Virus record (IMG/VR): IMGVR_UViG_3300042460_000724
Location: 1 to 64,000 of that record
Source: a virus
Direction: 5' to 3' (one strand)
Length of the DNA: 64,000 nucleotides
A model generated the notes under the pieces. That model was given only the letters and a program-made list of their open reading frames with translations, made no database searches and was not told where the DNA came from. Positions 10,000 to 25,656 of the stretch are shown here, piece by piece (the first letter of the stretch is position 1; every line of letters begins with the position of its first letter). The translations under genes and the position numbers were made by a program.

Positions 10000-10905
10000 A
10001 TGAAAAATATCATTGAGTGGAATGTTGGATTAAATGGGTACAAAAAATGTACCTTAGAATTAGGGGAAGATTCTCATAAATTTACCACAGAATTATTAGA
10101 TGTTTCATTTGAAAATGGACGTAATATTAGTGATATATTTAATGACCATTTATCCATTAGACAGACCAAATATGTAGAAGTTTTATACAGTGGTGGATTG
10201 GATAGTGAATTAGTATTACTATCCTGTATAAAAAACAGTATACCAGTAATAGCAATAACGTTGATTATTAAAATAAAAGGGTTAATCATTAATACCCATG
10301 ATTTGTATTATGCTGAGAAATTCTGTAGACAAAATGATATAACTCATAAATTAGTTGAATTAGATGCTGATAATTTTTTTCAGAATGGAGATTATCTAAA
10401 ATATTTGACCCCGTATCATATCATAGAACCACATGTAGCAACACATTTATGGTTAATTGAAAAGTGTAGTTATTTTCCTATTATGGGTGGGGATTGGCCT
10501 TGGATACATACCCATATAGAAAATAAAGTATTATCACCATTTAGACTAGAGTTTGCTAGCTATGAAAGATTTATGAGGGATAAAGGTATACACGGAATTG
10601 GCAATATGGTTGGATATAGTTTGGAATCTAGTTGTAAACTAATAAAAATACATTTAGATAATCACATAGGCGAAGAGTCTATATCTAATTTTAAATCACG
10701 TATGTATCAAACCATGTATCCTGAATTAGAACCTAGATTAAGAAGTTATGGTTGGGAATATCATAAAACATTAAAATTTAACTTAATAACATATAAGATA
10801 GAATTAATTAAACAATTAAAACATACCCTTCCGTTTATTAAATGGAATAACACCATCAAGACTCTATTAAACACACAAGCCAATGAAAATGACAAATTTA
10901 AATAA
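10000..10905 (+). CDS. Adenine-nucleotide alpha-hydrolase (SGGxDS PP-loop) protein
   Basis: VLYSGGLDSE; CTAAATA late promoter at 9988-9994. Confidence 0.75.
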   Translation: MKNIIEWNVGLNGYKKCTLELGEDSHKFTTELLDVSFENGRNISDIFNDHLSIRQTKYVEVLYSGGLDSELVLLSCIKNSIPVIAITLIIKIKGLIINTHDLYYAEKFCRQNDITHKLVELDADNFFQNGDYLKYLTPYHIIEPHVATHLWLIEKCSYFPIMGGDWPWIHTHIENKVLSPFRLEFASYERFMRDKGIHGIGNMVGYSLESSCKLIKIHLDNHIGEESISNFKSRMYQTMYPELEPRLRSYGWEYHKTLKFNLITYKIELIKQLKHTLPFIKWNNTIKTLLNTQANENDKFK

Positions 10906-12409: not shown

Positions 12410-12495
12410 TATATATCTCCGTTCTAATTCTTATTATACTACCAAAATGATTTATTGTCAAATGGATAAAGGTGTAATTAATTACACCTTTAATT

Positions 12496-12571
12496 TGGCA
12501 TCCCGGGTAAGCCTCGAACTTACAACCCCTGGTTTTGGAGACCAGTGCTCTGCCAATTGAGCTACCGAGAT
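12496..12571 (-). tRNA. tRNA-Trp(CCA)
   Basis: Cloverleaf, loop ctCCAaa, encoded CCA end. Confidence 0.95.
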
Positions 12572-12572
12572 A

Positions 12573-13115
12573 TTACACCAAAGCGATATTTAATTCTTTC
12601 AATTTATTTATATAGTATTCTTGGCCTTGACTAACTGTAGTACGCCAGTCATTCAATGAGTCTTCATTCGCACCATCACTAACAAACTTATAACATAGAA
12701 ACTCTATGTTATGTTTCTTACATACTTTTGCAATAGCATATGCTTCCATATCTACTACATCAGCAGGTATCAATAGATTACTATCAGTAACAAAGTTATC
12801 ACCTGTACTACAGGTTAGTCCATCACCGTTGTCAATGATGATTGTATCTTCAAATGGTGTTTGACCTGGTAGACTACCTAACTCACAGCACATCATATCA
12901 CGTTGTACAAACTTTGACACTTGATGAAATCCTGACTTAACAGTAACTCCACCTGCAGTACCAAAGTTAATAACACGCTTTGGATTGTATTTTGCAATAC
13001 ATTCAGCCGCGGTCATTGCGGCATTGACCTTACCTACACCGGTGTAGAAGACCTTCATACTAAATGATAGTTCAGGTGCTTCGTCTTTAAGTGCGATAAG
13101 AATCAAATCACGCAT
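12573..13115 (-). CDS. mtnN: MTA/SAH nucleosidase
   Basis: TGVGKVNAA, INFGTAG, TGDNF, DMEAYA and KFVSD motifs. Confidence 0.88.
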   Translation of the reverse strand: MRDLILIALKDEAPELSFSMKVFYTGVGKVNAAMTAAECIAKYNPKRVINFGTAGGVTVKSGFHQVSKFVQRDMMCCELGSLPGQTPFEDTIIIDNGDGLTCSTGDNFVTDSNLLIPADVVDMEAYAIAKVCKKHNIEFLCYKFVSDGANEDSLNDWRTTVSQGQEYYINKLKELNIALV

Positions 13116-13329
13116 TTTTTCTAATACGCTTTAAATAATCACGACCAACTAGTCCTGCTTCAATTTCCATTAATGCAGTTACAGTTGGACCTGCCTTTGT
13201 GTTAATCAATGATTTATGTCCACGCTTCAATTCTCTTACACGTTGTGAGGCGATAAGAACTAAATCAAATCGACTACCAACCATAAGTGCGGCTTCTTCA
13301 CTTGTATATCTTGCTCTGCTTTCAGTCAT
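13108..13329 (-). CDS. rpoZ: RNA polymerase omega subunit-like protein
   Basis: ARYTSEEA..MVGSRFDLVLIASQRVREL...PTVTALMEI; true start at ATG 13329. Confidence 0.85.
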   Translation of the reverse strand: MTESRARYTSEEAALMVGSRFDLVLIASQRVRELKRGHKSLINTKAGPTVTALMEIEAGLVGRDYLKRIRKNA

Positions 13330-13355
13330 ATCATCTTTCTGTTGTTGTAAAACTT

Positions 13356-13431
13356 TGGTGGGTCGTGAGAGACTCGAACTCCCGACATTCTGCGTGTAAG
13401 GCAGACGCTCTACCAACTGAGCTAACGACCC
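13356..13431 (-). tRNA. tRNA-Val(TAC)
   Basis: Cloverleaf, ctTACac. Confidence 0.95.
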
Positions 13432-13615
13432 AAATACTTTTAACCACCTTGGTTACTATCTTTAACTTCTGTTTCTCTAGCAATATTTTCAAATGCTTCA
13501 TCTTCATTCTTTTGATCCTCGATAATTCTTGGATCAGGCTTGCGAAAAATATTATCCCAATTATTGTTAAACGTATTTAAATCTACGCTATACGGTCTGG
13601 GCATACTTCCCTTGC

Positions 13616-13780
13616 TCATTTGCTATCCTTACGAGAACTGGTACGTGAATTGCTTTTTTCAATCTCAACATAACTGCGAATAAAATCTCCACGCTTATGT
13701 GCATCACGAATAAGTGTTGCCGCACGTTTAACTGCTTGGGGGAGTTTAACTGCCCTTGAATCATAACCTCTACAAGTCAT
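13616..13780 (-). CDS. Small basic protein (54 aa)
   Basis: Hand-translated MTCRGYDSRAVKLP... with AAGGA SD. Confidence 0.55.
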   Translation of the reverse strand: MTCRGYDSRAVKLPQAVKRAATLIRDAHKRGDFIRSYVEIEKSNSRTSSRKDSK

Positions 13781-13803
13781 ACTATTTTCCTTTTTAAAAA
13801 CTA

Positions 13804-13880
13804 TGGTCGGAGTACAAGGATTCGAACCTTGGACCTCATCGTCCCAAACGATGCGAACTACCGGGCTGTTCTACACTCCG
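13804..13880 (-). tRNA. tRNA-Pro(TGG)
   Basis: Cloverleaf, ttTGGga. Confidence 0.95.
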
Positions 13881-13882
13881 AA

Positions 13883-14032
13883 TTAACTTGGTATTATATG
13901 TGGTATGTATGGAACATTTCTAGGACCATGTCGTTGTTCAAAAAGCTTTTTAGCTTCCTGTACATTAGGTGCAAAGACTTTATCTTTAGTATCACCTTGT
14001 GGTGTTCTGACTGTTGTTTCATACATTGGCAT
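13883..14032 (-). CDS. Small protein (49 aa)
   Basis: Hand-translated MPMYETTVRTPQG... with AGGAG SD. Confidence 0.55.
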   Translation of the reverse strand: MPMYETTVRTPQGDTKDKVFAPNVQEAKKLFEQRHGPRNVPYIPHIIPS

Positions 14033-14046
14033 ATAATTCTCCTATT

Positions 14047-14121
14047 TGGATGCGGGGGACGGATTCGCACCGCCGATCTTCAGGTTATGAGCCTGATGAG
14101 TTACTACTTCTCCACCCCGCG
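14047..14121 (-). tRNA. tRNA-fMet(CAT), initiator-like
   Basis: CGCGGGG 5' end, C1:A72 mismatch, ctCATaa. Confidence 0.9.
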
Positions 14122-14334
14122 GTAATTAGTGAGACTGCTACTACACCACATAGCCCAATCTCTGAGTTGTTACACTGTCCATAACATTTATTCTTTTGGA
14201 AAGGTGCTATACCTCACCTAATGCGTTCCCGCCACTCCACCACAGAGTACGGATGGTCAATGCACTACACACCTAGCACTTTCTTTGGTGACTGCCCCAC
14301 CCACTTTATAACGTCAAAGTGTAAACGGGTTTCT

Positions 14335-14408
14335 TGGTGGAGGATAACAGAATCGAACTGTTACGAAGACCTTGCAAAGGTCCCAGGCTCCCATTACATC
14401 AATCCCCC
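14335..14408 (-). tRNA. tRNA-Ala(TGC)
   Basis: ttTGCaa, G3:U70. Confidence 0.9.
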
Positions 14409-14418
14409 AATATTCTTT

Positions 14419-14495
14419 TGGTGCCCTAGGAGAGACTCGAACTCTCAGCTTACGGCTTCTAAGACCGCTGTGTTTACCAATTTCACCACCAGGGC
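14419..14495 (-). tRNA. tRNA-Leu(TAG), short variable loop
   Basis: ctTAGaa, 5-nt variable region. Confidence 0.9.
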
Positions 14496-14559
14496 ATTTA
14501 ACTATTATAACAGAAAACTATTTATCTGTCAATACTTGTTTTCCCGAATAAATATTTTC

Positions 14560-14838
14560 ATGCTACAAAAGAAAGAACGTATCCCTCTTAACCTACGCCG
14601 TAGAGTTATTGAACGTGATGGTAAATGGTGTGTTTATTGTGATGAAGACTTATCCGATAAAGAAATACATATGGATCATGTTATTGCTGAATCTAAAGGT
14701 GGAGAAACTACATATAACAATCTTCAAGTAACTTGTAGAAAATGTAATCTTGCTAAGGGTACTTTAACTGAATTAGAATTTGTTGAACGGTTAAGAACCA
14801 GAGCAATAAACATTTTAAATAGAATTGGAGCGGGATAG
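14560..14838 (+). CDS. HNH endonuclease
   Basis: RDxxxCVYC...DHV...GG...NL...CxxCN; ATAAATA at 14548; start corrected to 14560. Confidence 0.88.
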   Translation: MLQKKERIPLNLRRRVIERDGKWCVYCDEDLSDKEIHMDHVIAESKGGETTYNNLQVTCRKCNLAKGTLTELEFVERLRTRAINILNRIGAG

Positions 14839-14900
14839 CGGATTCGAACCGCTGACGAACAGCTTGGAAGGCTGACACTCTACCCCTGAGTTAATCCCGC
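14826..14900 (-). tRNA. tRNA-Gly(TCC)
   Basis: ctTCCaa, U73. Confidence 0.95.
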
Positions 14901-14949
14901 AAAAAAGCCCACAATATTTAGTGGGCCCTTTGTATGTGTGTGAAAAGTT

Positions 14950-15189
14950 TTATTTCCTATCAAAGGCCCAGAATAAAACTCCTAGAGCTACAAGACCTAC
15001 TAGACCTTGACTACCCAATGCTGTCACAAATTTTAATACATTACCTAAAATGTCTAAACCGATGAATGGCACTGCCGCTCCGAAAATGATTTGTAAGATT
15101 ACACCCACTGCTAATAACTTAACTCCCATGTCAACTACGTGACCTAGAAATCCGCCAGCAATAGCGAATGCGTTATTCATTTTTTCCAT
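14950..15189 (-). CDS. Small membrane protein
   Basis: Hydrophobic helices; AAAGGA SD. Confidence 0.65.
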   Translation of the reverse strand: MEKMNNAFAIAGGFLGHVVDMGVKLLAVGVILQIIFGAAVPFIGLDILGNVLKFVTALGSQGLVGLVALGVLFWAFDRK

Positions 15190-15296
15190 GTTTTTGTTTC
15201 CTTTCACAAACTAATATTTACCTCTTTGTGAAGGCTTCAAAGCACATTCTCTTTACATTATTAGACTATTGTTATTACACAATAAATCTATATATT

Positions 15297-15372
15297 TGGA
15301 GTAGGTGACAGGAGTCGAACCTGCATAGCACGGATTTGCAATCCGCTACCTAACCATTCGGTACACACCTAC
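15297..15372 (-). tRNA. tRNA-Cys(GCA)
   Basis: ttGCAaa, U73. Confidence 0.93.
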
Positions 15373-15544
15373 ATATAAATACTATATGGAAATCAACGTG
15401 AACAACTTTTTATTGTTGTATGGAAACAATAAACATCCTTATCAACTAACTGGTAGTTGGGGTGTACACGATGGTTTTAAATTAAATGAGTTTTTACACC
15501 CGCCAAAAAAAGAATTTGTCCCTGACAAATTGCTTACAATAAGT

Positions 15545-15780
15545 TGCTCTGCATCCCCCGGCGGTACTATAGATATAACAACTTGGTTGTGCTTGCCATC
15601 CACCCATCGATGAATAGGGCACTCAGCAAGTTTTTACGCTACATCCTTCCATCCGCTTCCCGACAGGGACCGTTCTCGCATTGCTAGCGGCCTTTGGGTT
15701 TAAAGACTACCACCCGTAGTTGTCACACTACTTCTCATCGTGCGGGTCACACTATCCGAAGACACTCGGAACGTTCTGAT
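15545..15780 (-). ncRNA. Candidate structured ncRNA in the tRNA operon
   Basis: GC-enriched tract with several hairpins and no convincing ORF; boundaries approximate. Confidence 0.45.
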
Positions 15781-15790
15781 AAATAATTAT

Positions 15791-16402
15791 ATGAATAACT
15801 ATTATAAATTTATTGATATCTCTAATACTAACGAATATATAGATTATTTCTTAAATATATTTATAAAAGAACATAACTTTATGGAATTAGTTACAAAGTC
15901 AGTTAGTAAAAGATACATTGAATACCCAATAGATAAATATCACAATCCAATGACTGCTAAACTTAGTAATGAATTAACTAAAAAATACAAGTTTCCACCT
16001 ATTAGTCATTTTATATTATTTTATCATACATCCGATCAAGCTATACACGCTGATGGTTCTTTAGTTCCTAGATGGTGTAGTTTTAATTTACCATTAATAG
16101 GTTGGGAAGGTACTAGAATGAACTTTTATTCTCCTAAACCTGATGTAATATCTAAAGATAGAGAAGCTAGATACTATGCAGAAAATGATGTGATTTATCA
16201 GGATCATTTTGATTGTACTAATAATTGGGTACTATGTCATAGTGGTTTACCGCATAAAGTATGTAATATGACTACTGAAAATCCTAGGATCACTTTGGTG
16301 AATAGATTTCACGGTAATCCTACTTTTAAAGTATTAACTACTTTAGTTAACTTGTTTGGTGGAGAGTGTGGGATTCGAACCCACGCACCCATTACTGGAT
16401 GA
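15791..16402 (+). CDS. Cupin/2OG-Fe(II) oxygenase-like protein
   Basis: IHADG...FNLP...PHKV...RIT; ATAAATA at 15779; start corrected. Confidence 0.65.
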   Translation: MNNYYKFIDISNTNEYIDYFLNIFIKEHNFMELVTKSVSKRYIEYPIDKYHNPMTAKLSNELTKKYKFPPISHFILFYHTSDQAIHADGSLVPRWCSFNLPLIGWEGTRMNFYSPKPDVISKDREARYYAENDVIYQDHFDCTNNWVLCHSGLPHKVCNMTTENPRITLVNRFHGNPTFKVLTTLVNLFGGECGIRTHAPITG

Positions 16403-16444
16403 CAGATTAGCAATCTGTTGGTTTAACCACTCACCCAACTCTCC
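16357..16444 (-). tRNA. tRNA-Ser(GCT)
   Basis: ttGCTaa, long variable arm. Confidence 0.93.
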
Positions 16445-16451
16445 TAATACT

Positions 16452-16528
16452 TGGTGCCTCCACCTGGACTCGAACCAGGAACCAATGGATTATGAGTCCA
16501 CTGCGCTAACCAATTGCGCTATAGAGGC
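16452..16528 (-). tRNA. tRNA(CAT), Ile2-like (Met not excluded)
   Basis: gactCATaatc; body resembles tRNA-Ile2. Confidence 0.85.
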
Positions 16529-16537
16529 ATCATTCTT

Positions 16538-16622
16538 TGGTGCGAGTGGGCGGGGTCGAACCGCCATGCCTTGCGACGCCAGATTTTAAGTCTGGAGAGT
16601 ATACCGATTTCTCCACACTCGC
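16538..16622 (-). tRNA. tRNA-Leu(TAA)
   Basis: ctTAAaa, long variable arm. Confidence 0.95.
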
Positions 16623-16629
16623 ATTGTTT

Positions 16630-17052
16630 TTACTTATCACTCTTAAGACCAAGTGAAATATTCTTTTTATGTTCTTCAGTTTTGAGTTTACCCTTATTAC
16701 CTGAACCATGTGAATTACCAATCATCTTGTGACTATTCATCTTACAAGCTGTTTCATAACCATACTTATGTACAAGGGATTCCCAAGGACTCTTCCAAGT
16801 GCCATTATTTTTAGCATCCTGAATATTTTCTTTTCTTGTTCCCCAATAAAGATGTTTTGGATTTGAACATTTGTCATTATGACAAGCGTGACACAAATCA
16901 ACTTTACTAGGTAAATTCGTATTAAGATATTGTGCTAACACACCGCGATGAACTGTACTATTACCACCTCGTTCAATACAAGGTTCAGCCAATTCTAAAT
17001 GTTGCGTTCTTGCTTCTCTTGCTTCAGCTATCCAATTTTCAACTAAAATCAT
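16630..17052 (-). CDS. HNH (His-Cys box type) homing endonuclease with NUMOD-like tail
   Basis: LCHAC.N..CSNP.HL.WGT..EN; KGK.KTEEHKKNIS. Confidence 0.85.
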   Translation of the reverse strand: MILVENWIAEAREARTQHLELAEPCIERGGNSTVHRGVLAQYLNTNLPSKVDLCHACHNDKCSNPKHLYWGTRKENIQDAKNNGTWKSPWESLVHKYGYETACKMNSHKMIGNSHGSGNKGKLKTEEHKKNISLGLKSDK

Positions 17053-17119
17053 TTTTGATCTCCTCTATGTTTATTTATGCTAAACACAAGTAAATAAATG
17101 ATTTTGTGATTACTAAACT

Positions 17120-17196
17120 TGGCGCACCGTAGGGGACTCGAACCCCTGGCCTCTTGCGTGACAGGCAAGCGATCTAACCAACTGAGCTAACGGTGC
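17120..17196 (-). tRNA. tRNA-Asp(GTC)
   Basis: ctGTCac, G73. Confidence 0.95.
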
Positions 17197-17207
17197 ATGT
17201 TCTTGTA

Positions 17208-17846
17208 TTATAAAAAACTATCAGAAGTAACTGTAAAGTCTTTATATTTTTCTATACTTTTTTCTATTAAAGACTTCTGAACAAGTCCATCAACAATTAC
17301 TAATAATTTTTCTCTATCAGGATTATAAGTAGTTCCGTGCCAACAATGTTTGTCATTGTATGAAAACCAATTAGTTTCTTTTGGTAAAGAAAGAGGAATA
17401 GTTTTATTACCGTCTGGTAAGCTAAAATGCCATTGTTGTTCTTCCCAAGGATGATATAACATTGCTCTTATTCTCCATATATCAAGACCGTCATCCGCAT
17501 GAGGGGAAAAATTCTTAAGGCTCTTAACTATACGTATTGTTCTTACATTTGAAAACGGTAAATTAATACATTGTTGATACAACTTTGGTAAACTATGACT
17601 GATATCAACGTACGGGGATTGCCACAATGTTCTTCTCTCGCTACTCGCAGTCTGAAATATGTCCATTCCAAACCAGATATCGTTCCTACCTAACATACTA
17701 TTGTTAGGTACAGGTCTTGATACAGGATTTTGAGGTACAAAATAAGTTTTTACTAAGTTGTCAGCATTCTTATGCCATATTTCCCAAAATACATTCCAAT
17801 CATCTGGAACTAGCGGTGGTATATCTAATGGTGTAGCGATAATCAT
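17208..17846 (-). CDS. 2OG-Fe(II) oxygenase-like protein
   Basis: PHADD...WHGT...K; start corrected to 17846 after ATAAATA. Confidence 0.65.
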   Translation of the reverse strand: MIIATPLDIPPLVPDDWNVFWEIWHKNADNLVKTYFVPQNPVSRPVPNNSMLGRNDIWFGMDIFQTASSERRTLWQSPYVDISHSLPKLYQQCINLPFSNVRTIRIVKSLKNFSPHADDGLDIWRIRAMLYHPWEEQQWHFSLPDGNKTIPLSLPKETNWFSYNDKHCWHGTTYNPDREKLLVIVDGLVQKSLIEKSIEKYKDFTVTSDSFL

Positions 17847-17863
17847 ATTACTATTTATATGCT

Positions 17864-17948
17864 TGGTGGAGATTACTGGGATCGAACCAGTCGTGCTATA
17901 AAGCGGCGGATTTACAGTCCACTGCATCACCATTGATGCTTCATCTCC
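17864..17948 (-). tRNA. tRNA-Tyr(GTA)
   Basis: ctGTAaa, long variable arm. Confidence 0.93.
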
Positions 17949-18202
17949 GAATACACATAGATATGTACAATAACATTACTATCATACACATCTATATTAA
18001 ATTAGTATAAGCTACTTGTTTCCACACAAGCCCTTAATTGAGCGGTTACTCTGTCCATCCTTTTTATTCTAATGTCTGTGTGCAGAAGGATACTGCCTAT
18101 CAGATTCCGAGGGGTAGTTTCCAGCCCTACACTTACGGTCTTCTGCCACCGGATCTCTATCGCTAATCAAACGCTATTTTAACGAAAATAGTAACGGGAT
18201 GC

Positions 18203-18278
18203 TGGAGCTCGGTACGGGATTCGAACCCGTGTGAATGCCGTGAAAGGGCACTATCCTAGGCCGCTAGATGAACCGAGC
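18203..18278 (-). tRNA. tRNA-Glu(TTC)
   Basis: gtgcc-ctTTCac-ggcat. Confidence 0.93.
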
Positions 18279-18282
18279 ATTA

Positions 18283-18410
18283 TGTTATTAGTTTTGCTGA
18301 CGCACTATTTGCTATGTCTCAACGGAATCGGTGGCCACACTACCGTTTATCGTCATAGTTACGTAGGGTTGACGTTTACCCAAGGGCTTACATCAGCAAA
18401 ACTAATAACA
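18283..18410 (-). ncRNA. Candidate ncRNA closed by an 18-bp perfect stem
   Basis: tgttattagttttgctga / tcagcaaaactaataaca. Confidence 0.55.
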
Positions 18411-18411
18411 C

Positions 18412-18626
18412 ACTATATGAAAACACATTATGGGAACTATTAAACAAATAATCAGTACCGTCTACTGATGCAGTGTCATTCGTCATTACTGCCTGACTGC
18501 CCGTCACGTTCGTAACTTTCGTTATCATACGCTTCTTGTACTCTATGCGAAGCCAGTCCGTCAACTGGTTATGCTTCCATAGAGTACCTAACGGATCAGG
18601 TAACCCTTAATATGTTTACATATAGT
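18412..18626 (-). ncRNA. Candidate ncRNA closed by a 23-bp stem
   Basis: 20/23 Watson-Crick pairs plus a G-U that forms only on the minus strand. Confidence 0.55.
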
Positions 18627-18819
18627 CCCTGTAACTTAAACAGGGCTATATGATAACTTAACTTTTTAAAGAACTTTTTGCAACTGACTCTATCGTTTGT
18701 TGCTATGTGTCTATTATAACACCGTTTTGATTAATTGTCAAATTCTTTTTTGTGTCTCTGTTTCCAAGAACTTCTTCAATCAATCTAAGTATCTATTATA
18801 GCACCAAGTTGATTTATTG

Positions 18820-19053
18820 TCAAATTTTGAGTGCCTCTTTAAAGTTTTCAGAAATGATACCTTCTTTAACTCTAACATACTCACAATAAACTCTACCTTC
18901 ACCTAGGTGAAATTTCTTATCCTCGATTTGTTCTTCAATGTAGGACCAATCAAGATTATCATTTAAAACTTTCATCAATGCTTTTGCCGCATTGCGTGTT
19001 TGATATTTGTAACCTTGACCTAGCATCTCTCGGCGCCAATCATCATTCAACAT
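18820..19053 (-). CDS. Hypothetical protein flanked by promoter repeats
   Basis: ORF with AAGGAG SD; promoters at 18795-18823 and 19083-19111. Confidence 0.7.
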   Translation of the reverse strand: MLNDDWRREMLGQGYKYQTRNAAKALMKVLNDNLDWSYIEEQIEDKKFHLGEGRVYCEYVRVKEGIISENFKEALKI

Positions 19054-19115
19054 ACCAACTCCTTTAGTTAATCTAAGTATCTATTATAGCACCGATTGGA
19101 TTTATTGTCAAATTC

Positions 19116-19190
19116 TGGTCCGGGGTACAGGAATCGAACCTGTATTGACTGCTTAGAAGGCAGCTGTATTATCCATTATACTAACCCCAG
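19116..19190 (-). tRNA. tRNA-Arg(TCT)
   Basis: gctgc-ctTCTaa-gcagt. Confidence 0.93.
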
Positions 19191-19204
19191 CTACTTCAGT
19201 TGAT

Positions 19205-19280
19205 TGGCTCCCCTACGTGGGCTCGAACCACGGACATTTTGATTAACAGTCAAACGCTCTACCGACTGAGCTATAGGAGA
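19205..19280 (-). tRNA. tRNA-Asn(GTT)
   Basis: ctGTTaa. Confidence 0.95.
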
Positions 19281-19287
19281 ATAATTT

Positions 19288-19362
19288 TGGTGCCGACTAT
19301 CGGATTCGAACTGATGACCTATCGCTTACAAGGCGATTGCACTACCACTGTGCTAAGTCGGC
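19288..19362 (-). tRNA. tRNA-Thr(TGT)
   Basis: atcgc-ctTGTaa-gcgat. Confidence 0.95.
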
Positions 19363-19409
19363 ATATTTTATTTAAGTGTATTGTATCATAGGAAAACTTT
19401 TATGTCAAC

Positions 19410-19970
19410 CTATGATAGCAATATTCTACTGTGTTTGGGAACACCTGCTAACAAGTATTCCATTTGGTCTGCAAGAATTGTTCTATGTTGTAGTATCATA
19501 TTTTCGTAGTGATTAGGTATGTACGGTGTGTACAATAATTCCATACGTGACTCTTTCAATGTCTTATGACCTTTACGGCTGTTACAATCTTTACAAGCGG
19601 TAACAACGTTCATCCAAATGTTTTCGCCACCTTTACTCTTTGGATGAATATGGTCACGACTTAACATATGATAGTTAAGGAATTGCTCACCGCAGTATGC
19701 ACATACGTGACGGTCACGACCAAACAATGTTTTATTAGTTAGTGCTACACAAGAATGTTTGTATGGATTGAATCCGTGACCTTTGATAGCGATAATGCTA
19801 TTAGTTTCTAAGTAACTTAATGTACCGTCTTTTTGTATGCCGCCACGATACTTAGCCACAACTTCCCCCATACTCCATGCTATGGCATCTTTTGCTTTAT
19901 AGGTAATTGCGTCATCATTTGAGATCCACTGCCGGGGAACTCCTGAGATATCTAGTGCTAATACCGCCAT
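19410..19970 (-). CDS. HNH endonuclease (McrA-like)
   Basis: RD..CAYCG...DHI.PKS.GG...N.VTACxxCN.RK. Confidence 0.9.
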   Translation of the reverse strand: MAVLALDISGVPRQWISNDDAITYKAKDAIAWSMGEVVAKYRGGIQKDGTLSYLETNSIIAIKGHGFNPYKHSCVALTNKTLFGRDRHVCAYCGEQFLNYHMLSRDHIHPKSKGGENIWMNVVTACKDCNSRKGHKTLKESRMELLYTPYIPNHYENMILQHRTILADQMEYLLAGVPKHSRILLS

Positions 19971-20016
19971 TGTGTACTCCTTTTTGTTATTATCACTAAC
20001 TGTATTTAATGCCTAA

Positions 20017-20091
20017 TGGCGGGTCCTGCAGGAATTGAACCCACATCCCGAAGTTCGAAGCATCGTATTCTATCCATTGAACTAAGGACCC
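20017..20091 (-). tRNA. tRNA-Arg(TCG)
   Basis: ctTCGaa. Confidence 0.88.
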
Positions 20092-20093
20092 AT

Positions 20094-20169
20094 TGGTACC
20101 AAGAGTTGGACTCGAACCAACCACACCTAGTGCTTCAAACTAGTGCTCTACCTGATGAGCTATCTTGGC
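20094..20169 (-). tRNA. tRNA-Phe(GAA)
   Basis: ctagt-ttGAAgc-actag. Confidence 0.9.
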
Positions 20170-20331
20170 TTATAAAAGAGGGAGCCTAACTATCTTATTG
20201 TTAGTAAGCCTTGCTAGATTGTCTCGTATAGTCAAGTTTAACACCGGCTTCAATCATACTGTAGTGTCAACATAGCTCGCCCCACTATGTCTAGATTGGC
20301 AGGGACTCAAAACTATCGTCTATCCCATAAC

Positions 20332-20409
20332 TGGCACCCCCTGATGGATTCGAACCACCGAATGTCGGAATCAAAATCCGAGGCCTTAGACCAACTTGGC
20401 GAAGGGGGT
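20332..20409 (-). tRNA. tRNA-Gln(TTG)
   Basis: tcgga-ttTTGat-tccga. Confidence 0.92.
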
Positions 20410-20526
20410 ATTTTATCTTTAATAAAGACTCTCCTTGTACACATTACATAAATGTGTCCATGCTTCAATTTCTTGTTTATGTTTTTCTACTGATTGATTC
20501 CAATTCATTTCTGTCTCCTTAAAATT

Positions 20527-20603
20527 TGGTAGCCTCACTCTGACTCGAACAGAGGACCTATGCGTTATCAACACATTGCTCTAACCAACTGAGCTATGAG
20601 GCT
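20527..20603 (-). tRNA. tRNA-Ile(GAT)
   Basis: ttGATaa. Confidence 0.95.
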
Positions 20604-20610
20604 AAATGTT

Positions 20611-20685
20611 TGGTGGATGTAAGTAGATTTGAACTACTGACCTATTCCGTATGAAGGAATTGCACTACCGCTGTGCTATACATCC
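20611..20685 (-). tRNA. tRNA-Met(CAT), elongator-like
   Basis: attcc-ttCATac-ggaat. Confidence 0.88.
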
Positions 20686-20686
20686 A

Positions 20687-20763
20687 TGGGGTGCTTGATG
20701 GGATTCGAACCCACGTATATCGGAATCACAATCCGAGGTCTTAACCGCTTGACGACAAGCACC
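20687..20763 (-). tRNA. tRNA-His(GTG)
   Basis: ttGTGat, G-1/C73. Confidence 0.95.
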
Positions 20764-20769
20764 ATATGT

Positions 20770-20859
20770 TGGAGGAAGATAACAGAATCGAACTGTCACC
20801 TATTCATCATAAGTGGGACGGTTTTCAAGACCGTGTCCGCGCCATGCAGCCTATCTTCC
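20770..20859 (-). tRNA. tRNA-Ser(TGA), probable 8/4 fold
   Basis: acggt-ctTGAaa-accgt; acceptor GGAAGATA/TATCTTCC; 4-bp T stem. Confidence 0.85.
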
Positions 20860-21303
20860 ATTTGTTCTATTTTTAGACTTGTATGTGGGAAGTTGTGAAT
20901 CACAGTTACTACACACAAACCTTAAGTTTTCTAAACGATTATCATTATTAACCCCGTTAATATGGTCAAGTATTAACGGCATAGGTTTATCGTGCCATTC
21001 GGGCCCAAGACCACAACAAGCACATTTATATTCTATTAAGTTGTTTGTTCTTATCCTAGCCTTAACACTATGTCGGGCATAAGTGGAATTCTCACAAAAC
21101 ACAACTTCATCGGGATATAACTTATCCCATTTAGGGTGTCTACCTACCTCTTTACCTACATTCCAAGGGGTCGACCCTTTTTGTGCACCGGCTTTGTCCG
21201 AATGTTTATGCTTGATTTTATTAGGGTTACTAATACACACCATTTCGTGCGATGTTAGTGACCCTTTATTATTTATTTCTCTGTTACAATGTTGGCAATT
21301 CAT
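20851..21303 (-). CDS. HNH homing endonuclease
   Basis: CACCG...LDHING..NDNR.ENLR.VCSNC. Confidence 0.9.
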   Translation of the reverse strand: MNCQHCNREINNKGSLTSHEMVCISNPNKIKHKHSDKAGAQKGSTPWNVGKEVGRHPKWDKLYPDEVVFCENSTYARHSVKARIRTNNLIEYKCACCGLGPEWHDKPMPLILDHINGVNNDNRLENLRFVCSNCDSQLPTYKSKNRTNGR

Positions 21304-21367
21304 AATAGTATCCTCACTATTATTTATGCTTTATCGCAGAAAAACAGCAAATAAGTTCAATAAACCC

Positions 21368-21553
21368 TTAGGCTTTTTTGTCTATTTCATAGTTGTGATG
21401 CGTCGGCTCTAACTCACCGTCTCTATTATAAAGATATTGAACAACTTCAACAAGTTGTTTATTAGTTGCCGGATCTTTTACGATAGTGTACACCGTAGTA
21501 CGATATTGATGATTAATCATATCATTTATAGGTGTTGTGCTTTGTACTATCAT
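21368..21553 (-). CDS. Hypothetical protein
   Basis: ORF downstream of ATAAATA. Confidence 0.55.
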   Translation of the reverse strand: MIVQSTTPINDMINHQYRTTVYTIVKDPATNKQLVEVVQYLYNRDGELEPTHHNYEIDKKA

Positions 21554-21566
21554 ATAGTATTTATTA

Positions 21567-21585
21567 TGGTGGAAGCAGAGGGATT
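21567..21585 (-). pseudogene. 3' remnant of a tRNA gene
   Basis: aatccctctgcttccACCA abutting an HNH stop codon. Confidence 0.5.
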
Positions 21586-22163
21586 TACCTACCTAAAAGT
21601 TTTTTTGATCTTGCATAGTTATTACCTTTTGCCGATAAGCCTGCTTTAAGTAATCCTTGCCTAATATTATTAGTTTCAGTTAAACACTGTAATAAAAACT
21701 CATCAGTAACTATATTCACACCATTTTTTGAAGGTTTATTTCTACCTCGCCAAGTATCAGTTATACTATGGCAGTTTGGACACAAACCTTCTAAATTTTC
21801 TCTAACATTGTTAGTAGAGTTGCCGTCTTTATGTTCAAGTTCAAGTGGAATTTTAAAGCCTTGCCATTCACTTATACCACACTTATTACAACAGTAATCT
21901 TGTTCTTCAAACACTCTGCGGCGTCTGTTCTCTATACCTAACTCAACAAACGGGGTAGCATTGTATTTTTCTAACCACCTCTGACGAGACTTAGCGGCTT
22001 GCGCCTCCTTATCATAATGGCTTCGAAAAGCTGGTTTTCCTTTAAGTGCTATGCTCTTTTTGAGTTTAGCTTCATCAGAAAATATTCTACTATTAGCACA
22101 CGACCTAGAACAATATGTTCCTGATTTTTCGTGTTGCTCTCCGCATTTTAGACACTGTTTCAT
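21585..22163 (-). CDS. HNH homing endonuclease
   Basis: CxxC..YCSRSC; LELEHKDG...N.RENL..LCPNCHS. Confidence 0.9.
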   Translation of the reverse strand: MKQCLKCGEQHEKSGTYCSRSCANSRIFSDEAKLKKSIALKGKPAFRSHYDKEAQAAKSRQRWLEKYNATPFVELGIENRRRRVFEEQDYCCNKCGISEWQGFKIPLELEHKDGNSTNNVRENLEGLCPNCHSITDTWRGRNKPSKNGVNIVTDEFLLQCLTETNNIRQGLLKAGLSAKGNNYARSKKLLGR

Positions 22164-22223
22164 ATCGAACCTTTTTTAACTATAAAAGTATTTATCATAG
22201 TTCGATTATTTTGATTGTTTATA

Positions 22224-22297
22224 TGGTAGGCCTGCTCGGGAACGATCCGAGTTTTACTGGTTAAAAGCCAGTTACTTCACCTTAAAGTTTCAAGCCC
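22224..22297 (-). tRNA. tRNA-Lys(TTT), atypical
   Basis: actgg-ctTTTaa-ccagt; A8 and T-loop ATCGTTC. Confidence 0.82.
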
Positions 22298-22307
22298 ATA
22301 TATATTC

Positions 22308-22384
22308 TGGTGCGACCGGAGAGATTCGAACTCCCGACTCCCAAGTTCGTAGCCTGGTACTCTATCCAACTGAGTTACGGTCGC
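22308..22384 (-). tRNA. tRNA-Arg(ACG)
   Basis: ctACGaa. Confidence 0.95.
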
Positions 22385-22458
22385 ATTCTAAAATATACTA
22401 TGGCTTAACCCGTCAGAAGGGTCAGGGTACTGTTTATCCATAGTATATTTTAGAATGC
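22383..22458. repeat. 21-bp perfect inverted repeat with 34-nt loop
   Basis: gcattctaaaatatactatgg / ccatagtatattttagaatgc. Confidence 0.9.
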
Positions 22459-22754
22459 CGTGTATCTCTACACGACATGATAGGGTTGATACCCTATCCA
22501 GTAGTCTTACTCTTTGTGTTATCGCCACAAATTTTATGTGTACTGTCCGCCCATTTTATACATTTTGCGTTGTATTACGGTTCTCGTTACCTATTCACGC
22601 TGTTATCAATCAGTGTAAGTTAGTCGGTTGACTTTCTTAACAGCCTCTTGATAGACTCTAGCACGGTCGATCTTATTTTGTATCAACTGTGCCACTTGCT
22701 CATTTGTCAAAACATATTTGCTAAACCAATCATGCTTTGTTTCAGAAGTTTTGT

Positions 22755-22783
22755 ATTGTATCTCTTTATCCATTTATTGTCAA
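22755..22783 (-). promoter_or_regulatory. Sigma70-type promoter of the tRNA array
   Basis: TTGACA-17-TACAAT. Confidence 0.75.
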
Positions 22784-22801
22784 ATTCCTCTCTGTACAAA
22801 C

Positions 22802-22835
22802 AAAAAACCCTGAGAGTCTTGCGATTCCCAGGGTC
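22802..22835 (-). terminator. Intrinsic terminator (candidate attenuator)
   Basis: GACCCTGGGAATC-GCAA-GACTCTCAGGG-TTTTTT. Confidence 0.85.
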
Positions 22836-22863
22836 TTGATAAATTAGTTATGATGTTAACTTC

Positions 22864-23001
22864 TTACCTAGTCCCCGGGCCTCGTTCTTGGTTATCATTT
22901 GAGCCGCGAATACTTGTTGGATATGCTGGTGTAAAGGATACACTGGCTAATGACTGCCATTGTCCCATATGCTTCAGCGTTTTACAAGTTTTATTCATCA
23001 T
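22864..23001 (-). CDS. Candidate leader peptide, 45 aa (MMNKTCKTLKHMGQWQSLASVSFTPAYPTSIRGSNDNQERGPGTR)
   Basis: Hand-translated; CTAAATA and AGGA just upstream; 3' end forms the antiterminator arm. Confidence 0.65.
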   Translation of the reverse strand: MMNKTCKTLKHMGQWQSLASVSFTPAYPTSIRGSNDNQERGPGTR

Positions 23002-23077
23002 AGTCTTTTATTTAGTCCTAGTTGTAAATTAGTACAAATAACAGATGTTTTTTGTACCTTTTCTCAATTCAGACTGA

Positions 23078-23106
23078 AGTATAACACGGTTATTGATTAA
23101 TGTCAA
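23078..23106 (-). promoter_or_regulatory. Sigma70-type promoter upstream of the leader ORF
   Basis: TTGACA-17-TATACT. Confidence 0.75.
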
Positions 23107-23160
23107 CTTTTGATGTGCCCAAATCATTTATGAATGTAGTGTTAGAGATATAAATACAGA

Positions 23161-23463
23161 ATGATCGTAAATTCTACTACTCTCCGAGTAATTACAGCCA
23201 AGACAGATTCCTCTATAGAATTCTACAAAGATGTATCTGTTATGAATTATGTATTAAACGAATACATATTACCCAGCAAACTAGTTGCAGTCACTCGTAA
23301 AGAAGATGATGGCCTTACTGTTATAACCACATTAAATTTTGCATCAATTGAGTATATGCGTGAGTTCCTTTCCGATCCGATAATTAAAGAGTTTGGTAAA
23401 GTAAAACAAGCATATAATCAACAACATAACATAACAACCAAAACTGAGGCAATTAATGACTAG
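23161..23463 (+). CDS. Small alpha/beta protein, paralog 1
   Basis: Shares motif pattern with 26166 and 27101; TATAAATA at 23149. Confidence 0.7.
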   Translation: MIVNSTTLRVITAKTDSSIEFYKDVSVMNYVLNEYILPSKLVAVTRKEDDGLTVITTLNFASIEYMREFLSDPIIKEFGKVKQAYNQQHNITTKTEAIND

Positions 23464-23989
23464 AATAGTAAACGATTTTATATTAGAATTACCAGAAATA
23501 ATAGTAGATGTAGATGCTATATCAGATGATTGGATTAATGCTCATAAACCGAACAAAAGATTTGCTGTTTTAGATAAAATTCCTAGCGATCCTGTACTAA
23601 ATAAATTTGTAAAGTCATTTGATGAATCATTATTTGATGACCGAATTAAATTTATGATCCTTCGCTTTGACTCATATGATGAGTATGGTGCGCACGTAGA
23701 TGCTAGTAGGTATACCGGTATTAATTTGTTGATACGTGGAAATTCTCAATATAGCCCCATCAAATATTATTTAGATGATGATTTAACGAATCCAGTATTT
23801 GAATATCAATACAAAAATTACCCTATACTAATGACAAGTCAACGATATCATAGTATTAAAAATGATCATGAATCTGAAAGAATATTGTTTACCATACATT
23901 TTAAAACAGATTATACATTCCAAGGAATAAGAGATGAATGGTCTTTAGGTAATAAAGACTTGTTTTTTTCTAAAACAGGTTCTAAATAA
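23456..23989 (+). CDS. Cupin/2OG-Fe(II) oxygenase-like protein
   Basis: AHVD..R..GIN...YHSI.N...RI. Confidence 0.65.
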   Translation: MTRIVNDFILELPEIIVDVDAISDDWINAHKPNKRFAVLDKIPSDPVLNKFVKSFDESLFDDRIKFMILRFDSYDEYGAHVDASRYTGINLLIRGNSQYSPIKYYLDDDLTNPVFEYQYKNYPILMTSQRYHSIKNDHESERILFTIHFKTDYTFQGIRDEWSLGNKDLFFSKTGSK

Positions 23990-25656
23990 ATTTCATTTGT
24001 AATTTGTTGCATTTGTTGTCTAAACAAATTATAAATACCACTATTCATAATATGAATTGAGTGTACTGCAATAATATTATGCTGTAAAAAATGATCATAC
24101 ATATCATCAACCAATGAATGATATTTATAAAAATTGTCCAAGAATATATCAACTTTTCTATTCATTACTCCAAAAAAGTAATATTTGTATATATAATTTT
24201 TAACTATACCAGTATACCATTCTTTATTAGACATGCTATATGTAGATGTTATTAAGTTAGCTTCTGTAAAATAAGTTTGCAATATGTCCGGAGTTAACTC
24301 AGTAACCGTACTAGGTATTTGTAAATGTGCTACATAAACTTTTTCCACATTTATTTGATATTTTTTAATATATTCTGGGTCAGATGCCGGACTATTTGGT
24401 AACATCTCATAATAGAAATAATGTGTTTGAAATCCTAATTCAGTGGTCTCTATTAAGTTATAATCATAATGTGACAACGTTTGTCCTGGCAATCCCCAAA
24501 TATAATTAATTTTAGATTTAAAATGTCCTGCTACTTCCGGGAACTCATCAATAAATTCTTTAATCATTATCTTATGTTCTGACCATGGGATTTCGGGTCT
24601 ATCTAATTTAGCAATAACTTCTGGATCTAAATCTTGTACATCAAATTTTAACTTATTCTCTAATCCGGCTCTGATCATTTTTTTATACAATTCATGTGAT
24701 GCATCCTTCTTCACTTTAGACAACTGTAAAATAAAACTCTTAGGGCAAGTTGGATGAGTAGTTTTTAGTTTACACCAATAATCTACAATTTCACTATCTT
24801 GAGGACTTAACCCAACATTAGGATTAGACCATTGTACCATATGAAATTTTAAATCAGCAAACAACTCTAATTCTTGTTGATATGCAGGCCTTTCATTTTC
24901 AGGTAAAATGTCTTTTTTAATTCCCCAAAATCTAACTTTATTATGTAAACCCGAACTCCAATCACAAAATGAACACGCATACGGACAACCTTTTGTTGTT
25001 TCCCATACTCCTATTATAGTAGGATATCGCTTGAACCTATTAAACGAATCAGTTCGGAATTTGTTTATTACTATTTTAATTTCATCCTTATATGTTAAGT
25101 ATGGACTTTTTTTCAATGTTTCTTTATCATTAAAAACTGCATGCGGGTATACAGTCCCGTCACTTGATACAACATTAGTTAACTCTATTTGTTTTCCTGC
25201 TAAATGATCTAACAAATCAGTAAATGCTTTTTCTCCGTCCCCGTATACTACGTAATCATACCATGAATTTTTATTAAAGAATTCAGTGTCTTTGTGTGCA
25301 TCTAATTCAGGCCCGCCTGCAATAATAGTGATATTTGGTAATCTTTTCTTTATTTCTTGGCAAACTATTTTAAAGTAAACTTTATTCCATACATAAACAC
25401 TAACACCAATTATATCCACTTTATCATTTTGTAATCGTATACATAGATCATCCAAAAAGGCTGCATTAATGCCCTCACCTGGTTCAGGACCAATTAATAA
25501 ATCTTCAGGCGGTAACCAATTATATAAGTCTTTGCTTTTACTATTTGTATCAAAATACAATCTTAAAAAATAGTTAACAAAAGAGAAAAATTTTGAGTCT
25601 TGAATATTGGGGAAATAAATTCGGTATTCACTTGTTAGTATCTTTATATTACGCAT
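23911..25656 (-). CDS. B12-binding radical SAM enzyme
   Basis: GVSVYVWN, IAGGP, GDGE and ETTKGCPYACSFCDW. Confidence 0.9.
   Translation of the reverse strand: MRNIKILTSEYRIYFPNIQDSKFFSFVNYFLRLYFDTNSKSKDLYNWLPPEDLLIGPEPGEGINAAFLDDLCIRLQNDKVDIIGVSVYVWNKVYFKIVCQEIKKRLPNITIIAGGPELDAHKDTEFFNKNSWYDYVVYGDGEKAFTDLLDHLAGKQIELTNVVSSDGTVYPHAVFNDKETLKKSPYLTYKDEIKIVINKFRTDSFNRFKRYPTIIGVWETTKGCPYACSFCDWSSGLHNKVRFWGIKKDILPENERPAYQQELELFADLKFHMVQWSNPNVGLSPQDSEIVDYWCKLKTTHPTCPKSFILQLSKVKKDASHELYKKMIRAGLENKLKFDVQDLDPEVIAKLDRPEIPWSEHKIMIKEFIDEFPEVAGHFKSKINYIWGLPGQTLSHYDYNLIETTELGFQTHYFYYEMLPNSPASDPEYIKKYQINVEKVYVAHLQIPSTVTELTPDILQTYFTEANLITSTYSMSNKEWYTGIVKNYIYKYYFFGVMNRKVDIFLDNFYKYHSLVDDMYDHFLQHNIIAVHSIHIMNSGIYNLFRQQMQQITNEIYLEPVLEKNKSLLPKDHSSLIPWNV

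Follow-up and report, generated by a model that had tools for sequence, protein, structure and literature searches.

Whether the short open reading frame (ORF) at the head of a phage tRNA array is a small gene in its own right, or a translated leader through which ribosomes govern transcription towards the tRNA genes, is the question raised by a locus in IMG/VR virus record IMGVR_UViG_3300042460_000724. The stretch that we analysed, hereafter the window, comprises the first 64 kb (64,000 nt) of this 110-kb viral contig, whose CheckV completeness is ~31%; the G+C content of the phage is ~35%. On the minus strand, at 22802–23106, a promoter (P1) precedes a 45-codon leader ORF, an antiterminator hairpin and an intrinsic terminator, and beyond these come a second promoter (P2), a 55-codon ORF, a structured RNA and the tRNA array. 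An earlier interpretation drawn from the letters of the window (the sequence-only reading) had cast this arrangement as an attenuator with a leader peptide made of all 20 amino acids. Our comparative analyses and folding models suggest that the element, which stands at the 5′ edge of the tRNA array, is probably a transcription attenuator of the ribosome-mediated type.

The element is conserved, as is its placement ahead of tRNA genes, which the sequence-only reading had proposed as a check. Exact searches with the terminator recovered 4 viral contigs and searches with a 23-nt block of the ORF recovered 21, while a scan with a degenerate peptide pattern recovered 46 loci at 51–98% peptide identity, on as many related viral contigs, and a profile search of 5.8 billion proteins returned 47 clusters, all metagenomic and all unnamed. 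Across this family the leader ORF measures 43–48 codons. At all loci with enough downstream DNA, a tRNA array on the same strand starts 350–1500 nt past the ORF, and at none is there a tRNA gene within 3 kb upstream of it. The order of the tRNA genes varies among lineages, yet the leader always marks the 5′ edge of the array, and the genes upstream of the leader vary between loci, with no conserved synteny. The fixed position relative to the array, combined with the variable upstream genes, indicates that the element belongs to the tRNA array. The contigs of relatives with this element measure 348–524 kb, and the source therefore appears to be an uncultured giant phage. The ribonucleotide reductase in the window is nearest to those of T4-like phages of Xanthomonas, Ralstonia and Stenotrophomonas, which gives only a loose placement among T4-like phages of Proteobacteria. 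Among isolate phages, a blastn search of 50,697 phage records with the 900-nt region gave no match; the leader peptide found nothing in a reference genome collection apart from one spurious partial match; and a search for the locus by way of the neighbouring 177-aa protein found no relatives. No homologue of the leader motif was found inside longer proteins, no Pfam or PHROG family matches the peptide, and no Rfam leader or attenuator family matches 22800–23110 at E values up to 1.

Judged by its pattern of substitution, the leader ORF is translated and conserved, as had been proposed. It is open in 35 of 35 distinct DNA relatives, all indels being in-frame, and the pairwise ratio of nonsynonymous to synonymous substitution rates (dN/dS) is 0.50 in the leader frame compared with 1.04 and 0.85 in the two other sense frames. 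Constraint is distributed very unevenly along the peptide, with a dN/dS of 0.04 in the core PAYPTSIRG (codons 25–33), 0.28 in the N-terminus, where MMNKTC and a Trp are also conserved, and ~0.6 in the middle and C-terminal parts. Changes in the core are nearly all synonymous and at third positions, and conservation of the peptide drops sharply past Gly33, the very next column containing 8 amino-acid types. An antisense ORF of 60 aa at 22850–23032 (+) was rejected as a gene since it contains stops in 8 of the 35 relatives; shared wobble positions leave dN/dS non-discriminating for it.

At its 3′ end the ORF is conserved in a different manner. One group of relatives ends in G-P-G-T-R and another in P-R-G-T-E, the same nucleotides, CCCGGGG, being read in different frames, and a one-base difference past CCCGGGG brings both frame groups to the same TAA, 6–7 nt later. 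What is conserved at the end of the ORF is thus an RNA string that pairs with CCCUGGG of the terminator, together with the position of the stop codon. Since CCCGGGG is kept in two frames, the RGPG end is not a peptide feature, and the resemblance to RAGP/RAPG-type arrest motifs seen by the sequence-only reading does not survive comparison, relatives having H-G-P-G, R-S-P-G, P-R-G-T or A-R-G-T in its place. In one relative (L060:3116-3195, compared with L061) an extra G in the CCCGGGG run moves the stop 11 nt downstream, to a TAG that still lies within the antiterminator; the extra base is a natural frameshift variant or else an error of sequencing.

The RNA string at the end of the ORF forms the 5′ strand of the antiterminator. 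In the outer stem of this hairpin CCCGGGG (22879–22873) pairs with CCCUGGG (22833–22827), and in the inner stem 22870–22864, which holds the stop codon (22866–22864), pairs with 22843–22837. The terminator consists of a stem at 22835–22806 and a U tract at 22807–22802; a simple terminator scan did not list a terminator at 22835–22802, and it was established instead by its fold and its conservation. Because the antiterminator uses the 5′ arm of the terminator (22833–22827) as its own 3′ arm, the two hairpins are mutually exclusive. The shared strand is found in every lineage, as is a stop codon within the 5′ strand of the antiterminator. When sequences were folded singly, the antiterminator formed in 36 of 36 distinct sequences (-16.7 to -22.4 kcal/mol, z -3.4 to -6.5) and in 35 of these its stability exceeded that of the terminator.

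Because the CCCGGGG arms of the two frame groups could not be matched up by MAFFT, we built a covariance model of the antiterminator and realigned 37 sequences with it. In this model-guided alignment 92.5% of the antiterminator cells hold standard pairs, compared with 22–66% when the partners are slid by 1–3 columns; the alignment was fitted to the antiterminator and favours it somewhat, whereas the terminator, with 98.3% of its cells paired, was counted on the same alignment unfitted. Compensatory changes occur at 2 pairs (10 cells) of the antiterminator, namely an outer-stem pair that goes from C-G to U-A in L062 and an inner-stem pair that goes from G-C to A-U or U-A in nine sequences, and at 2 pairs (13 cells) of the terminator, and none of 500 shuffles reached the covariation score of the antiterminator. 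Furthermore, the second frame group, L052 and L066 each build the inner stem with the stop codon from sequences of their own. On this comparative evidence the antiterminator is about as well supported as the terminator, and the covariation called for when the two exclusive hairpins were first proposed is present in each.

We modelled the effect of a translating ribosome by masking a 27-nt footprint (-12 to +14 relative to the first base of the P-site codon) at each codon and computing pair probabilities. For a nascent RNA ending just past the 5′ arm of the terminator, the stage at which the choice would be made, the probability of the antiterminator is 0.6–1.0 either without a ribosome or with the P site at codons 1 to ~38, and it falls to 0 with a ribosome on the last ~7 codons, a pattern seen in ten of ten diverged members. 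Once the RNA is full-length, the terminator has a probability of about 0.8–1.0 when a ribosome occupies the last codons; with the ribosome upstream of codon 36, equilibrium folding of the full-length RNA depends on the sequence and is uninformative. The stop codon lies 28 nt from the terminator stem, beyond the footprint of the ribosome, and a terminating ribosome therefore leaves the terminator itself unblocked. This spacing can be set beside published work in which terminators a few bp past a gene are repressed and efficiency rises with distance (PMC4824070). The switch logic originally put forward, in which a ribosome at the end of the ORF leads to termination and a stall further upstream to antitermination, is thus reproduced in silico.

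These models suggest the following mechanism. Transcripts from P1, and perhaps also transcripts from a phage-type promoter just before the ATG, would carry the short translated leader, whose last codons and stop would pair with the 5′ arm of the terminator during transcription, making the antiterminator the default. A ribosome that reached the last ~7 codons or the stop in time would cover this strand, so that the terminator could fold and the transcript would end at 22802; slow, absent or earlier-stalled translation would instead let the polymerase continue through the 55-codon ORF and the structured RNA into the first tRNA genes. In effect, the leader would serve as a test message of 45 codons in which every amino acid occurs, the switch would report its timely completion, and tRNA supply would thereby come under negative feedback from decoding capacity. 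We infer that the position of the ribosome would decide the fold in vivo, that read-through would vary, and that shortage of tRNA would be the natural signal. The features of the locus are collected in Table 1.

Table 1 Features of the leader element and of the tRNA array in the window.
Feature	Position	Strand	Details
Promoter P1, sigma-70 type	23078..23106	-	TTGACA-17-TATACT, TG before -10, 11/12 match; predicted start near 23071
Stem-loop in 5′ untranslated region of P1 transcript, 28 nt	23031..23058	-	Form variable
GGACTAAATA box	23009..23018	-	7-8 nt before ATG; invariant in 37 sequences
Leader ORF	22864..23001	-	45 codons + TAA; 20 amino-acid types, 34 distinct codons
Invariant core P-A-Y-P-T-S-I-R-G	22903..22929	-	Codons 25-33; dN/dS 0.04
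Antiterminator hairpin	22827..22879	-	-21.5 kcal/mol, z -4.7
Intrinsic terminator	22802..22835	-	10-bp G+C-rich stem, GCAA loop, six U; -17.3 kcal/mol, z -4.9
Promoter P2	22755..22783	-	TTGACA-17-TACAAT; begins 19 nt past U tract
Conserved 55-codon ORF	22606..22773	-	Start inside P2 spacer, behind AGGA-type box
Conserved structured RNA, ~170 nt	22385..22552	-	Begins GGGCGGACAG; between 55-codon ORF and tRNA-Arg
tRNA array	12496..22384	-	26 tRNA genes, all 20 amino acids, with HNH endonuclease and small ORFs

The same features could be read as a stand-alone small-protein gene, in which the 45-residue peptide, with P1 before it and the terminator behind it, belongs to an insulated early unit and acts in trans, perhaps on a target in the host or one linked to tRNA, the hairpin at the stop codon shapes the 3′ end of the mRNA or limits its re-translation, and P2 and later promoters drive the array. 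The strong constraint on the core, the conserved N-terminal residues and Trp, the location of P2 directly past the terminator in most members, and the many more promoters within the array would all suit such a gene, and peTrpL is a precedent for a leader peptide that has its own function (PMC7298713). We nonetheless regard this explanation as unlikely, since the last codons are kept as RNA in two frames, with a compensated frameshift that holds the stop in place, and since the antiterminator pairs show compensatory change and share their 3′ strand with the terminator in every lineage. The start of the next ORF requires read-through, and no copy of the element was found apart from a tRNA array. 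For the peptide, AlphaFold2 with a 42-sequence alignment gives no confident fold (predicted local distance difference test score 61, predicted template modelling score 0.15), and the peptide has neither longer relatives nor a Pfam or PHROG family.

The composition of the leader peptide bears on what the attenuator might sense. Runs of codons for one amino acid are absent from it, 20 amino-acid types and 34 different codons being spread over 45 positions, whereas random 45-residue stretches of the proteins of the phage contain all 20 amino acids in 2–5% of cases and at least 34 distinct codons in 0.4% (mean 26.9, standard deviation 2.5). This breadth, to which the sequence-only reading had drawn attention, is a property of the family. 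All 20 amino acids occur in 63 of 73 distinct full-length members and 19 occur in seven more, and the number of distinct codons is 31–37 across the family, on average 4.1 codons above what each peptide would be expected to use under the codon usage of the phage. G+C at third codon positions is 38% in the leader ORF and 24% in the long ORFs of the phage. Codons of the leader match anticodons of the phage at 39 of 45 positions compared with 78% genome-wide, a difference that is not significant (P = 0.12).

Shared ancestry alone does not readily account for the complete amino-acid set. A null in which the columns of the alignment are independent yields all 20 in 19–36% of cases. In a tree-aware null (a FastTree tree, per-column F81 models with fitted rates, a root with all 20 amino acids, 300 runs), 27–34 of 73 members (standard deviation about 10) retained all 20, and 63 was reached in none of the 300 runs; with rates halved, 63 was reached in at most 1.7% of runs. 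There are also apparent replacements, a Phe appearing past the core where Phe23 is lost and a Lys near the end where both usual Lys residues are lost. These statistics favour selection for a complete amino-acid set, within the limits of simple site-independent models and of a family in which 10 members are incomplete. The position of the set can be compared with the folding model, in which the last A-site codon that would be sensed is ~n-6, plus or minus one: all 20 amino acids lie within residues 1 to n-6 in 61 of the 73 members and within 1 to n-7 in only 23, an agreement that is post hoc and depends on the footprint.

These results raise the possibility, which we put forward tentatively, that the leader gauges the aminoacyl-tRNA pool across all amino acids, such that depletion of any one charged tRNA raises transcription into the complete tRNA set of the phage. 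Depletion might come about by starvation, by host shut-down or through host anticodon nucleases, and each amino acid would sit where a hungry codon still permits the antiterminator to form.

A different input is conceivable, given the extreme conservation of the nine-residue core. In a nascent-peptide-gated attenuator, the segment ...SF.PAYPTSIRG would act in the ribosomal tunnel as a pause, or as a ligand-sensitive arrest, at about codon 33–34, and the ribosome held there, upstream of the antiterminator strand, would set read-through, so that the input would be release of the pause and not the general tRNA pool. The sharp end of conservation past Gly33 would be expected if the later residues had not yet been made when the segment acts, and in the masked folding a ribosome whose P site holds codon 33 does not cover the antiterminator strand. 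Pairing of codons 29–34 with the CCCGGGG strand in the manner of trp (the 1:2 pairing), which might add a third state, is proposed by RNAalifold and is seen when members are folded only as far as the stop codon (in 7 of 8), yet 85% of its cells are paired and it shows no covariation. The peptide comparison is similarly mixed. In arrest peptides of the SecM type (EcSecM ...GIRAGP, MsSecM HAPIRGSP, and RAPP/RGPP) the last Pro is decoded in the A site (PMC12526060). The phage core likewise has I-R-G in a regulatory small ORF, recalling the MsSecM segment, and its conservation ends where the stall site would lie, but the defining A-site Pro of such RxxP-type motifs is absent past SIRG (no member has Pro at +2 from the invariant S-I-R-G), the codon after Gly33 is variable, and the C-terminal R-G-P-G is not conserved as peptide. 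As gating by the nascent peptide would also leave the retention of all 20 amino acids and the codon diversity unexplained, we think it quite improbable. Alongside such a gauge of the aminoacyl-tRNA pool, the core may in addition act in the tunnel as a pause of a new kind, one that sets the timing of ribosome against polymerase. By analogy with peTrpL (PMC7298713), it could alternatively reflect a second, trans-acting function of the peptide.

The region between P1 and the leader ORF contains further conserved signals. Both P1 and the CTAAATA motif noted earlier near 23008 are present, the latter at 23015–23009 (-) inside the GGACTAAATA box, and most relatives have a counterpart of P1 48–106 nt upstream of the ORF. 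The TAAATA box before the leader may be a phage-type promoter that gives a near-leaderless RNA, or a start signal. TAAATA also lies 5–8 nt before the ATG at starts in the window that lack a Shine-Dalgarno sequence, at 10000 (+), 23161 (+), 25656 (-), 32001 (-) and 35668 (-) in addition to 23001 (-); the pattern TAAATA-N4-8-ATG is not enriched in number (14 seen, 15 expected). In the 5′ untranslated stem-loop, A-U and C-G pairs are replaced by G-C and U-A or U-G in relatives, which are compensatory substitutions; L012, L014, L016 and L018 have shorter perfect hairpins and L017 has none. This stem-loop is probably a stabiliser of the 5′ end that lies outside the switch. The start-codon region (UAUGAUG...ACUUGU) is complementary to a conserved untranslated segment of the antiterminator loop (ACAAGU...CAUCAUA), with 94–98% of cells paired, wobble-preserving changes only and no covariation. 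Such a pairing could shut off re-initiation once the RNA is complete, with the reservation that invariant pairs prove nothing.

That start-codon pairing is conserved, that promoter and terminator are both strong, and that the whole transcript folds better than its shuffles (z -3.6) might also be expected if the terminated ~265-nt P1 transcript were a trans-acting small RNA with only incidental translation, for which the attenuator-derived rnTrpL offers a precedent (PMC6614838). The ORF has a clear coding signature, the RNA has no Rfam family and no known target, and its fixed position before tRNA arrays would go unexplained; we therefore consider it very improbable that this is what the element is for. 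Such a role is compatible with an attenuator as an addition to it and is not an alternative.

How far downstream the attenuator might act depends on the promoters that follow it. The separate promoter past the terminator, P2, which the sequence-only reading had raised as a caveat, is confirmed and is conserved in most relatives, including L062 and L065, where the 55-codon ORF is missing. It is absent in three lineages (L028/L029, L066/L067 and L068), two of which have shortened U tracts. The 55-codon ORF has tblastn matches at 26 of 46 loci (38–82% identity), begins with ATG or, in some relatives, TTG, and in L052 starts ahead of the -35 element. It has no Pfam family and one weak PHROG match of unassigned function. 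The -10 hexamer of P2 doubles as Ile-Glu/Gln-Tyr codons of the 55-residue ORF. Because the start of this ORF lies in the P2 spacer, its N-terminus is translatable only from RNA that has read through the terminator; this need for passage of the terminator and the three lineages without P2 both favour a role for read-through.

The structured RNA that follows has four or five hairpins, with 55 predicted pairs of which 10 are compensated among 8 sequences, and no Rfam match. It ends in a perfect 19-bp hairpin abutting tRNA-Arg, which may be a processing site, and it is preceded by an A+T-rich promoter-like box, TGTATAAAAT / TGTATAGAAT, at ~22553–22566 (-). Downstream of it the tRNA array is complete, as had been stated; 25 of its tRNA genes were called by ARAGORN and tRNA-Tyr(GUA), at 17948–17867, by Rfam. 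Five perfect 12/12 sigma-70 promoters (TTGACA-17-TATAAT) lie inside it on the minus strand, at 12433–12461, 14504–14532, 18713–18741, 18795–18823 and 19083–19111, and the array is therefore a mosaic of transcription units. Taken with P2 and the promoter-like box, these five promoters imply that the switch can govern only part of the transcription of the array, and the original suggestion that it boosts all 26 downstream tRNAs was overstated. Between tRNA genes lies an HNH endonuclease gene at 21585–22163 (-) (PHROG E value 6e-25), a 97%-identical copy of which is found in the array of L037; it is absent from the arrays of most relatives, and a mobile homing endonuclease in the tRNA array fits this distribution. 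On the other side of the element, a B12-binding radical SAM gene at 23911–25656 (-) and the convergent 177-codon ORF at 23456–23989 (+) overlap by 79 nt at their 3′ ends. The idea that the leader encodes a precursor of a ribosomally synthesized and post-translationally modified peptide served by the B12-radical SAM enzyme was rejected, a weak counterpart of the enzyme lying within 3 kb at only 1 of 46 loci.

Several observations weigh against the attenuator reading. At normal spacing from the leader start there is no Shine-Dalgarno sequence, so that loading of ribosomes on P1 transcripts may be poor. Covariation is modest, both arms of the antiterminator being highly conserved, and at equilibrium the full-length RNA of several relatives prefers the terminator regardless of an upstream ribosome, which means that the switch, like classical attenuators, must act kinetically. 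An independent small gene would likewise show a promoter, a gene and a terminator with a new promoter behind them, and in most members P2 lies just 19 nt past the terminator, with the promoter-like box and consensus promoters further downstream. In addition, PAYPTSIRG is under strong selection at the level of the peptide and a model of codon sampling needs no such selection, the 10 incomplete members of the 73 lack one to three amino acids, codon diversity may stem in part from G+C-rich pairing segments in an A+T-rich genome, and most amino acids occur once or a few times, so that sensitivity to partial shortage may be low.

Attenuation by leader peptides is textbook knowledge for amino-acid biosynthesis operons and is also known for some resistance genes. 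Like the trpL, hisL, thrL, leuL, pheL and ilv leaders, the phage element combines a short translated ORF with an intrinsic terminator and an exclusive antiterminator, and its predicted logic is that of these enterobacterial leaders, in that a ribosome at the end of the ORF would cover the 5′ strand of the antiterminator and a stall would give read-through. It has the structural features of the attenuators of amino-acid operons except for codon runs and a supported anti-antiterminator. Unlike them, it contains every amino acid, mostly once or a few times, in place of runs of codons for a single one, has an invariant nine-residue core, and precedes tRNA genes and a small ORF and not biosynthetic enzymes. 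It also differs from trp in that, with no supported anti-antiterminator, an untranslated leader is predicted to be read through, whereas an untranslated trp leader terminates.

The functionally nearest published system is the upstream ORF (uORF) of mycobacterial whiB7, a broad gauge of translation stress that reacts when any of many amino acids, tRNAs or synthetases is lost and in which stalling is believed to antiterminate (PMC10274678). That uORF is variable and enriched in alanine, whereas in the phage leader the core is fixed and the composition is balanced across all 20 amino acids; as output the bacterial system has a transcription factor and the phage element has tRNA genes, and there is no relation in sequence. 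Antibiotic-responsive leader attenuators, such as mef/mel (PMC4335068), and tylosin-dependent stalling (PMC6851288) offer a second parallel, in that stalling in a leader ORF switches a terminator off and the signal is impaired elongation and not a specific amino acid; these systems need a drug-bound ribosome and a specific nascent peptide, whereas the phage element would need no drug and its output would be decoding capacity. With respect to the regulation of tRNA arrays, the nearest published case is the trn operon of Anabaena PCC 7120, in which ~23–26 supernumerary tRNA genes are expressed more strongly when translation is impaired (PMC8421152, PMC10272220). There the regulator is the repressor TrcR, acting at the promoter of a cellular operon, whereas the phage element is viral and consists of a leader peptide and a terminator. 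A full-text search of the literature found no attenuator for tRNA genes or phage tRNA arrays, and no leader balanced over all 20 amino acids.

If the element is indeed an attenuator of the kind proposed, large phages would monitor the decoding capacity of their hosts and adjust their own tRNA supply to it, a point relevant to why phages carry tRNA arrays and to how they deal with host shut-off and with defences that target tRNA. The nine invariant residues of the core could also constitute a new peptide that interacts with the ribosome, and the design as a whole, compact (~200 nt), portable and with no protein factor, would provide synthetic biology with a sensor of global translation efficiency. 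Were the leader to prove a gauge of the entire aminoacyl-tRNA pool, tRNA supply would be a homeostatically controlled function of the phage.

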